From Escherichia coli (GTDB lineage: Bacteria > Pseudomonadota > Gammaproteobacteria > Enterobacterales > Enterobacteriaceae): DNA of 64,000 nt. The notes beneath the pieces are model-generated. The model was not told the DNA's origin and did not search any database. It saw only the letters and a program-made list of their open reading frames with translations. Position numbers and translations under genes: made by a program. This document shows, one piece after another, positions 3,251-48,902 of this stretch. The stretch is from NCBI RefSeq assembly GCF_003334815.1, contig NZ_QOWO01000002.1. One strand, written 5' to 3'. Positions within the stretch are counted from its first letter, which is position 1. Each line of letters opens with the position of its first letter.

Positions 3251-4008
3251 AAATGAATCTCCGCACTTAAAGGGGCATGATCAGAAAGGTGTCGCCATGT
3301 CCGCAGCGGCAACGCGGTTGGCGCGCTGGCGCTGGCATTTTTGACGTAGATCCTGTCCAGTCGTAGTAGAGGAAATTGCACCGGAAACGTGCGCGCCGGG
3401 CGTCCGTGGGCGCGGGTAAAAATCTCATCCAGTCCGGCCTGCACTTTTAACGGATGATTAGCTTTTTGCCGCCAGTCATTGAAATCACCCGCCACCAATA
3501 CCGGTTCGCCGTCCGGTAGCTCATTCACCCATTCGGCGAGCATCGCAAGCTGCGCCTGACGGTGCGCCTCACGCAGGCCCAGATGTACGCACATCACATG
3601 AATCGCTTTTCCGGTCATCGGCGGCACAATGCGGCAGTAGAGCACGCCGCGCTTTTCCGCACCATCGACCGAAACATCGCGATTCTCATAATGTTCAATG
3701 GGATAACGCGACAGTACGGCGTTGCCGTGATGCCCTTCCGGGTATACGGCATTGCGACCGTAGGCAAAATCGCTCCACATAGTGTCGGCGAGAAACTCGT
3801 AGTGCGAGGTATCGGGCCAGTTTTCCACATGCAGCGGATGAACTTCGTGCGCGCCCATCACTTCCTGCAGGCAAACAATATCGGCGCTGACGGTACGCAC
3901 GGCGTCGCGAAGTTCCGGCAAAATGAAGCGTCGGTTAAACGCGGTAAAGCCTTTGTGAATATTGATGGTGAGCACCTTGAACGAAAATTGTTGTGTTTGA
4001 TCGGGCAT
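3247..4008 (-). CDS. ybhP: Endonuclease/exonuclease/phosphatase-family protein YbhP
   Basis: ORF track 253 aa; stop overlaps clsB start; first gene of ybhP-clsB-ybhN unit. Confidence 0.85.
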
Positions 4009-4140
4009 AATTTTCCTGTCTTTGCCTCTTATCTCATTGAAATAGTGTAGTCGGCGTCACAAAAAGGTGCGGTCTTACGGAATTTTCCGTAAAGTTCGGT
4101 ACTCTGAGTAAGTAGAGATAAATTCTTCAGGAGAGAAGCC

Positions 4141-4551
4141 ATGAAGTGGCAACAACGTGTTCGTGTCGCAACGGGTCTAAGTTGCTGGCAGATTATGTTG
4201 CATTTACTGGTAGTGGCGCTGCTGGTGGTGGGCTGGATGAGTAAGACTCTGGTTCACGTCGGCGTGGGATTATGCGCACTGTATTGTGTCACGGTAGTGA
4301 TGATGCTGGTGTTTCAGCGCCACCCCGAGCAACGCTGGCGTGAGGTGGCAGACGTGCTGGAAGAGCTGACCACGACCTGGTATTTTGGCGCAGCGCTGAT
4401 TGTGCTGTGGCTGTTGTCCCGCGTTCTGGAAAACAACTTTTTGCTGGCAATTGCAGGGCTGGCAATCCTTGCCGGCCCGGCGGTAGTGTCTTTGCTGGCG
4501 AAAGATAAGAAGTTACATCACCTTACGTCTAAACATCGCGTACGCCGCTGA
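4141..4551 (+). CDS. ybhQ: Inner membrane protein YbhQ
   Basis: ORF track 136 aa, hydrophobic helices; 3' end overlaps the convergent ybhR 3' end. Confidence 0.8.
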
Positions 4552-5619
4552 CCCTGTCGTGGCCGTTATCACCAGTAGCGGCCACAAACTATTCCACACA
4601 ATATCCAGACTCGCATCCTTCAAATAAATCTGCTTGGTAATGTCCGTAAAGTGGCGAATAGGGTTAATCCACGTCAGGTTTTGCAGCCATACCGGCATGT
4701 TTTCCACCGGAGAAACGTAACCGGAAAGGAGAATGGCGGGCATCATAAAGACAAACACGCCGATAAACGCCTGCTGTTGTGTTGAACAGAGTGATGAAAT
4801 CAACAGACCGAATCCCACCAGCGATAAACCATAAATCACCATCGTAAAGTAGAACAGCGCCAGCGATCCGGCGAAGGGGATTTGATACGCCCAGATACCA
4901 ATCGCCAGCACAATGGTGGCCTGGAAGGTGGCGACAATTAACGCCGGTACGGCTTTGCCGATGAAGATCTGCCAGGTGGTGAGCGGCGAAACCAGTAGCT
5001 GATCGAGCGTACCTTGTTCACGTTCGCGGGCGACGGAAAGTGAAGTGACGATCATTACGCCGATAGTGGTGATCATGGCGATCAGTGACGGCACCACAAA
5101 CCATTTGTAGTCGAGATTCGGGTTATACCAGTTGCGTACCACCAGCTCGCTGTTGTTAGGTTTCGGTTTTCCTTCCAGCAGCTCCTGCTGATAATTTTTG
5201 ACGATCTGTTGCAGGTAGTTGGCGGCAATTTGCGCACTGTTGGAGTTACGCCCGTCGAGGATCAACTGCAAAGGCGCGGTCTGGAAGGTATCCAGTTTGC
5301 GCGAGAAGTCAGCCGGGAAACGCACCAGTAGTAACGCCTTTTGTGTGTCGATGGTTGGGCGGATCTCCTGTGGGCTTTTCAGCAGCAGCACATGAGTAAA
5401 GGCGCTGGCGCGGGCAAAACGTTGGGTCAGCTCCACCGAATGCTCGCCGTTATCTTCATCGTAGATGGCGATGGTGGCGTTAGTCACTTCCAGCGTGGCG
5501 GCGAACGGGAACAGGATCACCTGAATTAGCACGGGTAAAATCAGAATCGCGCGGGTTTGCGGTTCGCGCAGCAACGACTGCAACTCTTTGCGGATTAACG
5601 TCCATAAGCGATGAAACAT
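4513..5619 (-). CDS. ybhR: ABC-2 type transporter permease YbhR
   Basis: ORF track 368 aa; ABC-2 permease architecture (large N-terminal loop then TM bundle); in ybhGFSR operon. Confidence 0.9.
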
Positions 5620-44640: not shown

Positions 44641-45875
44641 TACAGGCCTCCGAACAACGCGTTAAACGGTTCTACTTCCACCCATTCGCCCACTTCCACA
44701 TTGCCGCGATCGCGTTCCAGCACGATAAAGCAGTTGCCGAGGCTAAAGGAGCTAAATATATGTGAACCCTGATGTCCGGTGGTCGTCACTTCCAGTTCGC
44801 CATCGGCGTTGCGTTGCAGCACGCCGCGCTGGAAATCAAGACGTCCTGGCGTTTTTTTCAGGCGGGACGCTGTGCGTACGCGCTGGCGCGCGGGCAGGCC
44901 GCTGGCGGTGTTACCGCTTAGTTTTGCCAGCAAAGGCTGTACCAGTTGATAGAAGGTCAGCGTCGCTGAAACCGGGTTGCCCGGCAGGCCGCAGAACCAG
45001 CTATTGCTGAGTTTACCGAACGCGAACGGTTTACCTGGTTTAATCGCCAGCTTCCAGAAGGCGATCTCCCCCAGCTCTTCAAGAATCGTTTTGGTGTAAT
45101 CCGCCTCACCCACTGAAACACCGCCGGAACTGATCACCACATCCGCCTGGCTGTCGGCTTCAATAAATGCGGCGCGCAGGGCATGGGGATCGTCGCGGAT
45201 AATCCCTAAGTTAATTACCTCGCATCCCAACTGTTCTAACATCAGGTGTACGGCGAGACGGTTGGTATCGTAGATTTGGCCGTCGCCCAGCGGCTGACCG
45301 GGCAACTGGAGTTCATCACCGGTAGAAAAAAGCGCTACACGCACTTTACGAATCACCGGAACTTCGGCAATCCCCAGTGAAGCAATTACTGGCAGCTCTG
45401 CGGTAGTCAGGCGAGTTCCCGCCGGGAAAACAACCGCACCTGCAGAGATATCTTCACCGCGACGGCGAATATTTTGCCCGCTACGCACTTCAGCAGTAAA
45501 ACGCACGCCATTGTCCATTTGTTCAGTCTGCTCCTGCATCACCACCGCTTCGCAGCCTTCCGGCACCGGCGCACCGGTCATAATACGAATGCAGGTACCC
45601 GCAGGCCATTCACCATGGTATGGCTGACCGGCAAAGGATTTACCGGCAACGGGCAGCGGTTGCCCGGAGGCAATATCGGCTAAACGCACCGCGTAGCCGT
45701 CCATTGCGGAGTTATCAAACCCCGGAACATCAAGCGGCGAAACGACATCGCTCGCCAGAATACGACCAAAACACTGTACCAGTGGCAGCGTTTCCTGGGC
45801 GGTCAGTGGGGTGACGCGAGAAAGCATCTCATTAAGCGCGGTGTCGAGCGACATCAATCCGGTGGTAAATTCCAT
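44640..45875 (-). CDS. moeA: Molybdopterin molybdenumtransferase MoeA
   Basis: ORF track 411 aa; overlaps moeB start. Confidence 0.95.
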
Positions 45876-46078
45876 GAAAACACTCCTGCGGAGGCAAAAT
45901 CGAATTTGCCTATTATGTCAGAAAAACGCCACAGACTGTATGCCACCTCGGGCGTAGCGCTGGGTCCTGCCTTTACATGCCATATCCATCTTTCTATATT
46001 CAAAAATTGAATGAGTAATTCATAAAAATTCTGATATTTATAGCAAAAGTGGCGAACCACCCTTAATGGACGAATACT

Positions 46079-47044
46079 ATGGGCAAAGCAGTCATTGCAA
46101 TTCATGGTGGCGCAGGTGCAATTAGCCGCGCGCAGATGAGTCTGCAACAGGAATTACGCTACATCGAGGCGTTGTCTGCCATTGTTGAAACCGGGCAGAA
46201 AATGCTGGAAGCGGGCGAAAGTGCGCTGGATGTGGTGACGGAAGCGGTGCGTCTGCTGGAAGAGTGTCCACTGTTTAACGCCGGAATTGGCGCTGTCTTT
46301 ACGCGTGATGAAACCCATGAACTGGACGCCTGTGTGATGGATGGTAACACCCTGAAAGCCGGTGCGGTGGCGGGCGTTAGTCATCTGCGTAATCCGGTTC
46401 TTGCCGCCCGGCTGGTGATGGAGCAAAGCCCGCATGTGATGATGATTGGCGAAGGGGCAGAAAATTTTGCGTTTGCTCGTGGCATGGAGCGCGTCTCGCC
46501 GGAGATTTTCTCCACGCCTTTGCGTTATGAACAACTACTGGCAGCGCGCAAGGAAGGGGCAACCGTCCTCGACCATAGCGGTGCGCCACTGGATGAAAAA
46601 CAGAAAATGGGCACCGTGGGGGCCGTGGCGTTGGATTTAGACGGCAATTTGGCGGCAGCCACGTCCACAGGCGGAATGACCAATAAATTACCCGGACGAG
46701 TTGGCGATAGTCCCTTAGTGGGTGCCGGATGCTACGCCAATAACGCCAGTGTGGCGGTTTCTTGTACCGGCACGGGCGAAGTCTTCATCCGCGCGCTGGC
46801 GGCATATGACATCGCCGCGTTAATGGATTACGGCGGATTAAGTCTCGCGGAAGCCTGCGAGCGGGTAGTAATGGAAAAACTCCCTGCGCTTGGCGGTAGC
46901 GGTGGCTTAATCGCTATCGACCATGAAGGGAATGTCGCGCTACCGTTTAACACCGAAGGAATGTATCGCGCCTGGGGCTACGCAGGCGATACGCCAACCA
47001 CCGGTATCTACCGTGAAAAAGGGGACACCGTTGCCACACAGTGA
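46079..47044 (+). CDS. iaaA: Isoaspartyl dipeptidase / L-asparaginase (Ntn hydrolase) IaaA
   Basis: ORF track 321 aa; autoprocessing-site region (GTVGAVALD). Confidence 0.9.
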
Positions 47045-48902
47045 TGAACTTGATGCCGGTAATGTGCTGGCGGTTGAAAATCTGAATATTGCCTTTATGC
47101 AGGACCAGCAGAAAATAGCTGCGGTCCGCAATCTCTCTTTTAGTCTGCAACGCGGTGAGACGCTGGCAATTGTTGGCGAATCCGGCTCCGGTAAGTCAGT
47201 GACTGCGTTGGCATTGATGCGCCTGTTGGAACAGGCGGGCGGTTTAGTACAGTGCGATAAAATGCTGTTGCAGCGGCGCAGTCGCGAAGTGATTGAACTT
47301 AGCGAGCAGAACGCTGCACAAATGCGCCATGTTCGCGGTGCGGATATGGCGATGATATTTCAGGAGCCGATGACATCGCTGAACCCGGTATTTACTGTGG
47401 GTGAACAGATTGCCGAATCAATTCGTCTGCATCAGAACGCCAGTCGTGAAGAAGCGATGGTCGAGGCGAAGCGGATGCTGGATCAGGTACGCATTCCTGA
47501 GGCACAAACCATTCTTTCACGTTATCCGCATCAACTCTCTGGCGGGATGCGCCAGCGAGTGATGATTGCGATGGCGCTGTCATGCCGCCCGGCGGTGCTG
47601 ATTGCCGATGAGCCAACCACCGCGCTGGATGTCACTATTCAGGCGCAGATCCTGCAATTAATCAAAGTATTGCAAAAAGAGATGTCGATGGGCGTTATCT
47701 TTATCACTCACGATATGGGCGTGGTGGCAGAGATTGCCGATCGGGTACTGGTGATGTATCAGGGCGAGGCGGTGGAAACGGGTACCGTCGAACAGATTTT
47801 TCATGCACCGCAACATCCTTACACCCGTGCGCTGTTAGCTGCTGTTCCGCAACTTGGTGCGATGAAAGGGTTAGATTATCCCCGACGTTTCCCGTTGATA
47901 TCGCTTGAACATCCAGCGAAACAGGCCCCCCCCATCGAGCAGAAAACGGTGGTGGATGGCGAACCTGTTTTACGAGTGCGTAATCTTGTCACCCGTTTCC
48001 CTTTGCGCAGCGGTTTGTTGAATCGCGTAACGCGGGAAGTGCATGCCGTTGAGAAAGTCAGTTTTGATCTCTGGTCTGGCGAAACGCTATCGCTGGTGGG
48101 CGAGTCTGGCAGCGGTAAATCCACTACCGGGCGGGCGTTGCTGCGCCTGGTCGAATCGCAGGGCGGCGAAATTATCTTTAACGGTCAGCGAATCGATACC
48201 TTGTCACCCGGCAAACTTCAGGCATTACGCCGGGATATTCAGTTTATTTTTCAGGACCCTTACGCTTCGCTGGACCCACGTCAGACCATCGGTGATTCGA
48301 TTATCGAACCGCTGCGTGTACACGGTTTATTGCCAGGTAAAGACGCGGCTGCACGCGTTGCGTGGTTGCTGGAGCGCGTGGGCCTGTTACCTGAACATGC
48401 CTGGCGTTACCCGCATGAGTTTTCCGGCGGTCAGCGCCAGCGCATCTGCATTGCTCGCGCGTTGGCATTGAATCCAAAAGTGATCATTGCCGACGAAGCC
48501 GTTTCGGCGCTGGATGTTTCTATTCGCGGGCAGATTATCAACTTGTTGCTCGATCTCCAGCGTGATTTCGGCATTGCGTATCTGTTTATCTCCCACGATA
48601 TGGCGGTGGTAGAGCGGATTAGTCATCGTGTGGCGGTGATGTATCTCGGGCAAATTGTTGAAATTGGTCCACGGCGCGCGGTCTTCGAAAACCCGCAGCA
48701 TCCTTATACGCGTAAATTACTGGCGGCAGTTCCGGTCGCTGAACCGTCCCGACAACGACCGCAGCGTGTACTGCTGTCGGACGATCTTCCCAGCAATATT
48801 CATCTGCGTGGCGAAGAGGTGGCAGCCGTCTCGTTGCAATGCGTCGGGCCGGGGCATTACGTCGCACAACCACAATCAGAATACGCATTCATGCGTAGAT
48901 AA
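47031..48902 (+). CDS. gsiA: Glutathione ABC importer ATPase GsiA (two fused NBDs)
   Basis: ORF track 659 aa from 46923; start trimmed to TTG at 47031 (protein ...[10 protein letters not shown], 623 aa by recollection); Walker A GESGSGKS twice. Confidence 0.8.

Follow-up and report, generated by a model that had tools for sequence, protein, structure and literature searches.

The TTG start of gsiA and its 14-nt overlap with iaaA at an Escherichia coli operon junction

The closest described systems include cases of termination-reinitiation such as hyfH-hyfI and menD-menH, with spacings of -4 (ATGA) or -1 (TGATG) between the upstream gene's stop codon and the start codon of the gene downstream. 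The pair iaaA-gsiA resembles them in that the genes are co-directional and in one operon, the start codon and Shine-Dalgarno (SD) sequence of the downstream gene lie within the upstream gene, and the stop is near the start. What sets it apart from these classic coupled pairs is a spacing of -14 in place of -4, -1 or -8; overlaps of greater length are uncommon and show weaker coupling. We know of no complex that IaaA and GsiA have in common. The enriched or efficient spacings are -4, -1 and -8, coupling in a reporter series becomes less efficient with increasing overlap between -4 and -25 nt, and the predictive range for termination-reinitiation runs from -8 to about +10 nt (PMC12548453; PMC10666635).

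The junction also fits the stop-loss model of short overlaps, with AAA in place of TAA, eight added residues, and the next out-of-frame stop located in gsiA, but the direction of the change is read from the distribution among genera and the TAA of Salmonella complicates a single-event history. Genes with a UUG start are a small minority in E. coli, and gsiA is like the others in having an SD at normal spacing and an initiation signal in vivo. Among these, ybeZ was re-mapped in the same table of tetracycline-inhibited ribosome profiling (TetRP) data in which gsiA appears (PMC4909307). With its SD inside the upstream gene, the junction is like many operon junctions.

The described counterpart is gsiA of K-12 (b0829, formerly yliA; U00096.3 / NC_000913.3), which is the same gene, with the TTG start, the 14-nt overlap and 623 aa. 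Nothing of substance differs in the window, by which we mean the whole stretch of 64,000 nt that was analysed. The window is B-type, with Ser for the K-12 Pro in the GsiA motif FDLW[S/P]GETL (window ~48100-48130), Pro being the residue in the K-12 protein of the TetRP table; this is a B-strain versus K-12 polymorphism located just ahead of the second Walker A motif.

The junction and the annotated gsiA start

The gene order at the locus is moeB and moeA on the minus strand and iaaA, gsiA, gsiB, gsiC and gsiD on the plus strand. Positions 46700-47400 are a 100% match to BL21(DE3) (701 nt compared) and were found in all 5426 complete E. coli genomes in a genome search, which identifies the region as E. 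coli, and a junction 45-mer is present at 99% identity or more in 5208 of these 5426 genomes. Five of the 5427 places with junction matches in E. coli genomes are on plasmid-labelled records, and one genome has two copies. The features of the junction are as follows.

46079..47044, plus strand: iaaA coding sequence (isoaspartyl / beta-aspartyl peptidase, EcAIII), 321 aa, from the list of open reading frames and RefSeq's annotation of BL21(DE3), where the sequence is identical
47031..48902, plus strand: gsiA coding sequence (glutathione ABC transporter ATP-binding subunit), 623 aa from TTG, from RefSeq BL21(DE3) and K-12, NF007613 and TetRP
47031..47033, plus strand: gsiA initiation codon TTG, a start-capable alignment column with a TetRP signal
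47019..47024, plus strand: SD sequence AAGGGG, inside the iaaA coding sequence, with a 6-nt spacer to the TTG
47031..47044, plus strand: dual-coding overlap of 14 nt, gsiA codons 1-5 and iaaA codons 318-321 plus the stop
47042..47047, plus strand: tandem in-frame TGA TGA at the end of iaaA, read from the sequence

The stop codon of iaaA is the TGA at 47042-47044. It is followed directly by a second TGA because the gsiA codons AGT GAT GAA CTT GAT (S-D-E-L-D) are read here in the iaaA frame, and a third TGA in that frame is found at 47051-47053. The gsiA frame is +1 relative to iaaA. A stop scan found it free of stops from 46911, and its longest ORF is 46923..48902, 659 aa with an ATG start. The TTG at 47031-47033 is in this frame, 108 nt or 36 codons past 46923. 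The coordinates given in the initial annotation, namely the gsiA frame from 46923, the TTG at 47031 and its place 14 nt inside iaaA, were all correct against the sequence and the ORF list.

The identity of both proteins is clear from profile matches. IaaA matches the NCBIfam equivalog NF007589 over residues 1-321 and is identical to the EcAIII chains in the PDB, for which there are many crystal structures. Translated from the TTG, GsiA aligns from residue 1 to 623 with positions 1-623 of the 623 in NCBIfam NF007613, at 1372.5 bits against a cut-off of 1077, so the match is full length and includes the N-terminus. The PDB holds relatives of GsiA and no structure of GsiA. In one E. coli genome, an ExPEC isolate from mussels (NZ_CM172609.1, L002:2832-4926), gsiA is annotated as a 510-aa ATP-binding cassette protein plus a pseudogene fragment and is apparently disrupted; the BLAST match ended at 92% of the query.

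RefSeq annotates gsiA from this TTG in BL21(DE3), at locus coordinates 3332-5203, which correspond to window positions 47031-48902. The same is true of K-12 MG1655 (NC_000913.3), where gsiA b0829 lies at 867520-869391 and encodes a product of 623 aa from TTG (NP_415350.2). Both RefSeq records have the 14-nt overlap of iaaA and gsiA. The start preferred by the initial annotation is therefore the accepted one.

Experimental support comes from the TetRP study of Nakahigashi 2016, in which row 8 of Table S2 is yliA, that is, gsiA (PMC4909307). The new initiation site given there is a TTG 33 nt upstream of the 2006 start, and the signals in the three samples were 46.3, 140.5 and 70.6 at the TTG versus 0, 0 and 3.0 at the 2006 GTG (PMC4909307). 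Relative to the 2014 record U00096.3 the TetRP start shows zero difference, and the "N'-peptide found" field of the row is empty (PMC4909307 Table S2). The searched part of the TRAINSPOTTER N-terminomics supplement (2026) contains a 16-residue N-terminal peptide that confirms the N-terminus of iaaA, and it contains no N-terminal peptide of GsiA. We did not find a gsiA entry in the Salmonella riboproteogenomics supplements.

In a cell-free assay, INRI-seq, the isolated gsiA fragment (-30 to +120) gave 0 CPM in 5/5 replicates; the fragment's transcript amounted to 151 CPM, the assay assigned gsiA no other start, and the in vivo Ribo-RET signal of gsiA was also 0 (PMC9825163). About 30% of annotated starts escape INRI-seq (PMC9825163); the iaaA ATG, which N-terminomics confirms, is among those missed, and the zero for gsiA is therefore weak evidence. 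Taken together, the zeros from INRI-seq and from Ribo-RET mean that direct, SD-driven loading of ribosomes may be weak.

The initial annotation had left the initiation codon uncertain and had named ribosome profiling with enrichment of initiation complexes as a check. That check is already in the literature as TetRP and supports the TTG, so the uncertainty was not borne out. RefSeq, NF007613, TetRP and the ortholog comparison described below all agree on TTG 47031. The TTG start and the overlap are already known from reference annotation and published initiation-profiling data, and a start that is annotated and backed by profiling makes this an ordinary operon junction.

Conservation of the start among orthologs

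We aligned the gsiA-frame translations across the junction in 80 loci that represent different species and whose first 340 residues show 65-91% protein identity. The column aligned to TTG 47031 is ATG, GTG or TTG in 70 of the 80 loci. A first count of this column gave 30 ATG, 22 GTG and 19 TTG, the interchange of start codons that marks a non-AUG start. The column is far above chance as a start: the next best start-capable column among the 80 loci, at 47064, reaches 51% and is a conserved valine, and all others are at 25% or less. In the 13 Escherichia and Citrobacter loci the TTG is found without exception (13/13). The residues that follow the start, PHSDELD, are conserved as protein and show synonymous differences in genera that do not have the overlap, and the region is therefore translated. 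An ortholog is also present in the betaproteobacterium Alcaligenes endophyticus (L078). Its gsiA is 65% identical to that of E. coli over the first 340 residues, has an ATG start and no iaaA upstream, and may reflect horizontal transfer from Enterobacterales.

The SD sequence points to the same codon. The duplex of AAGGGG with the 3' end of 16S rRNA was calculated at -7.8 kcal/mol, compared with -3.0 kcal/mol or weaker for five other in-frame candidates, and TTG 47031 is the only candidate with a good match 5-9 nt upstream. A motif of the GGAG/GGGG type precedes the start in 62 of the 70 orthologs.

Other in-frame codons downstream and upstream of the TTG were considered as the gsiA start.

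47064..47066, plus strand: in-frame GTG, the gsiA start of the 2006 K-12 annotation (612 aa), SD -2.3 kcal/mol, TetRP 0/0/3
46923..46925, plus strand: the ATG that comes first in the open gsiA frame, rejected as a start, SD -1.5 kcal/mol

GTG 47064, giving a protein of 612 aa, was the earlier curated start; it might serve as the principal start, or as a second one of substantial use. Alignments with related ATPase domains in the PDB and NCBIfam set in at GsiA residues 9-13, and initiation at V12 would therefore leave the domain whole. We nevertheless consider this start very improbable, given its near-absent TetRP signal and its poor SD. Among the 13 close relatives the codon is GTG in 7 and GTA or GTT in the other 6, and never ATG or TTG, which is how a codon for a conserved valine behaves; upstream of it, residues 2-8 show conservation at the protein level, and INRI-seq called no alternative start. 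Further downstream, ATG 47097, present in 4/13 of the Escherichia and Citrobacter loci, was likewise rejected, on SD strength, TetRP and conservation. Initiation upstream, at ATG 46923, ATG 46932 or GTG 47013, would give a longer protein and an overlap of up to 122 nt, and it is suggested by the frame being open from 46911, with the longest ORF starting at 46923, and by the presence of ATG 46923 in 11/13 Escherichia and Citrobacter loci. ATG 46932 is found in 6/13 of these and GTG 47013 in 1/13. We find such a start scarcely credible. The SD energies are -1.5 (46923), +0.2 (46932) and -3.0 (47013) kcal/mol, the codons come from synonymous choices in iaaA (CAT GAA, CGT GAA), and 47013 lies within the 60 nt that TetRP searched, yet only the TTG was reported (PMC4909307). 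The frame is open as far as 46923 in only 25 of the 70 orthologs; it is closed within 36 codons upstream in 45/70 and within 6 codons in 24/70. At 13-16% of the +1-frame positions in 41 long ORFs from the window, the stretch upstream is free of stops for at least 36-40 codons, and the open gsiA frame upstream of the TTG is at chance level.

We also considered an IaaA-GsiA fusion produced by a +1 frameshift and rejected it. The run GAAAAAGGGG, with five A's in GAA AAA GGG, has no known slippery pattern, and as judged from the sequence the last sense codon before UGA, CAG, cannot re-pair in the +1 frame.

Origin of the 14-nt overlap

Overlap of the two genes is restricted to part of the ortholog set. 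From iaaA stop to gsiA start the distance is +9 to +11 in 38 of the 80 loci, -14 in 12, -4 in 6 and -1 in 4, with a few other values in the remainder, and 8 of the 80 loci have no iaaA upstream. All of the -14 loci have TTG and all are Escherichia or Citrobacter, counting one metagenome-assembled genome (MAG) that is labelled Raoultella. That MAG, from an uncultured Raoultella sp. (L007), has a Citrobacter-type junction with AAA, TTG and -14, and the similarity of its GsiA N-terminal half to E. coli is about that of Citrobacter. In Raoultella ornithinolytica (L030) the codon is TAA and the spacing +11. The MAG contig is probably misassigned.

The difference between the two arrangements can be traced to one codon in the alignment.

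47018..47020, plus strand: AAA (IaaA Lys314) at the usual position of the iaaA stop TAA, from the junction listing and the alignment

Leclercia, Kosakonia, Phytobacter, Superficieibacter and others, as well as the iaaA remnant of Salmonella arizonae, have GAA-TAA-GGRG at this point, and Escherichia and Citrobacter have GAA-AAA-GGRG. In the other genera the wider context is TAT CGN GAA TAA GGRG, followed by 6-7 nt and a GTG or ATG; in Escherichia and Citrobacter it is TAY CGN GAR AAA GGRGANANNG TTG CCA CAC AGT GAT. With AAA in place of TAA, IaaA runs on for 8 residues (K-G-D/E-T/S/A-V-A-T-Q). The tail in the window is KGDTVATQ, and the first in-frame stop is the TGA inside gsiA codons 4-5. Based on the distribution among genera and on parsimony, we infer that the TAA stop would be ancestral and the AAA read-on derived in Escherichia and Citrobacter. 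The 14-nt overlap probably arose by the loss of the stop codon through a single base change, which extended IaaA by 8 residues. Salmonella is a close relative with TAA and GTG, which this history can accommodate only through a reversal, through two separate origins or through recombination.

An 18-nt block at the start and stop, TTGCCACACAGTGATGA, is invariant in the 13 Escherichia and Citrobacter loci. It covers 5 consecutive third positions of gsiA codons; of the 26 that come next, 24 vary. Such invariance would be the expected signature of dual coding combined with an initiation site.

Transcription and possible coupling of iaaA and gsiA

A consensus promoter scan of 45800-47400 returned one sigma-70-like match, in a conserved region ahead of iaaA.

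45972..46000, plus strand: sigma-70-like promoter match, TTTACA-17-TATATT, upstream of iaaA

The scan found no promoter inside iaaA, a result to be read knowing that weak or non-sigma-70 promoters escape such scans, and the terminator-like hits within iaaA are weak consensus matches in coding sequence. The two genes are co-directional and overlapping with no promoter-like site between them, as in coupled pairs.

A natural deletion is informative about this arrangement. In Salmonella enterica subsp. arizonae (L014:2273-2500), ~926 bp comprising nearly all of iaaA are deleted, between the equivalents of window positions 46061 and 46988, and the promoter-like region between moeA and iaaA now abuts the final ~57 nt of iaaA. 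This genome keeps the TAA, the GGAG and the GTG start of an intact 623-aa gsiA. The retention of the promoter-like region next to gsiA fits a single upstream promoter.

The initial annotation had taken the overlap to imply translational coupling of the peptidase with the glutathione importer. What stands is that these are operon neighbours that overlap without a promoter between them; what speaks against the claim is the spacing of -14, the SD that gsiA has of its own and the lack of a conserved RNA structure. At -14 the spacing is outside the range for termination-reinitiation, and the +9 to +11 arrangement of other genera is at the edge of the range of -8 to about +10. RNA structure at the junction is no stronger than in shuffled sequences (z = -0.78 over 100 nt; over -30 to +15, z = -0.08), and RNAalifold gave a consensus structure with 0 pairs for 27 sequences. 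A hairpin that masks the ribosome-binding site was considered and rejected: in the minimum free energy fold of -30 to +15 the SD is paired to CCGGUAUCUACC, and the energy of this fold equals that of shuffled sequences, with no consensus structure. The junction does not have the stable, conserved structure through which masking would produce coupling. Overlap-based coupling of iaaA and gsiA is plausible, and partial coupling from iaaA to gsiA seems likely.

Two further readings differ in how much gsiA would depend on iaaA. At one extreme coupling would be obligate, the UUG being served almost exclusively by ribosomes fresh from termination at the iaaA TGA, which move back 11 nt. In its favour are an operon in which no spacer separates the two genes, a weak TTG as start codon, and the invariance of the 18-nt block at the start and stop in Escherichia and Citrobacter; in addition, initiation is seen in vivo by TetRP and the isolated region is silent in cell-free INRI-seq, where no alternative start was found. 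We regard obligate coupling as unlikely. A spacing of -14 falls outside -8 to +10, coupling being weaker the longer the overlap between -4 and -25 nt, and the gsiA site has a good SD and a structure like that of shuffled sequences, with no consensus among 27 sequences. Most genera do not have the overlap, S. arizonae retains the SD and start with iaaA gone, and 8/80 loci have no upstream iaaA at all. Non-detection by INRI-seq is common, at about 30% of genes, and dual coding explains the invariant block equally well. It is doubtful that stop loss and a weak UUG together made GsiA synthesis strictly dependent on iaaA termination in Escherichia and Citrobacter. If this were true, the output of the glutathione importer would be tied to translation of the peptidase, and it would explain how the isolated initiation region can be silent in vitro yet used in vivo. 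At the other extreme, gsiABCD would have its own promoter inside iaaA, and much gsiA mRNA would carry no translatable iaaA, which would make coupling irrelevant. Nothing in the sequence favours this reading. The promoter scan speaks against it, since its only match is upstream of iaaA, and so does S. arizonae, where the iaaA body is deleted and the upstream promoter-like region is kept beside gsiA. We think an internal promoter quite improbable.

The reading that we hold to be very probable is that this is an ordinary internal junction of an iaaA-gsiABCD operon, in which gsiA is translated from the TTG by means of an SD in iaaA and the overlap is secondary. In this model gsiA and iaaA would be co-transcribed from the promoter region that precedes iaaA, and the SD AAGGGG in the last iaaA codons would direct initiation at UUG 47031, with ribosomes loading directly at the gsiA site. 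Ribosomes that end iaaA translation 11 nt downstream may add some local re-initiation, probably a partial contribution. The overlap itself would be a by-product of the single-base change from an ancestral iaaA TAA to AAA.

The importance of the junction is low, given that reference annotation already includes both the start and the overlap, with experimental support. The additions made here are modest: confirmation of the start across genera, a probable origin of the overlap by stop loss, and a natural iaaA deletion in S. arizonae that leaves the gsiA ribosome-binding site alone. The junction may be of use in teaching, or for testing how well translation is coupled at an overlap of -14.
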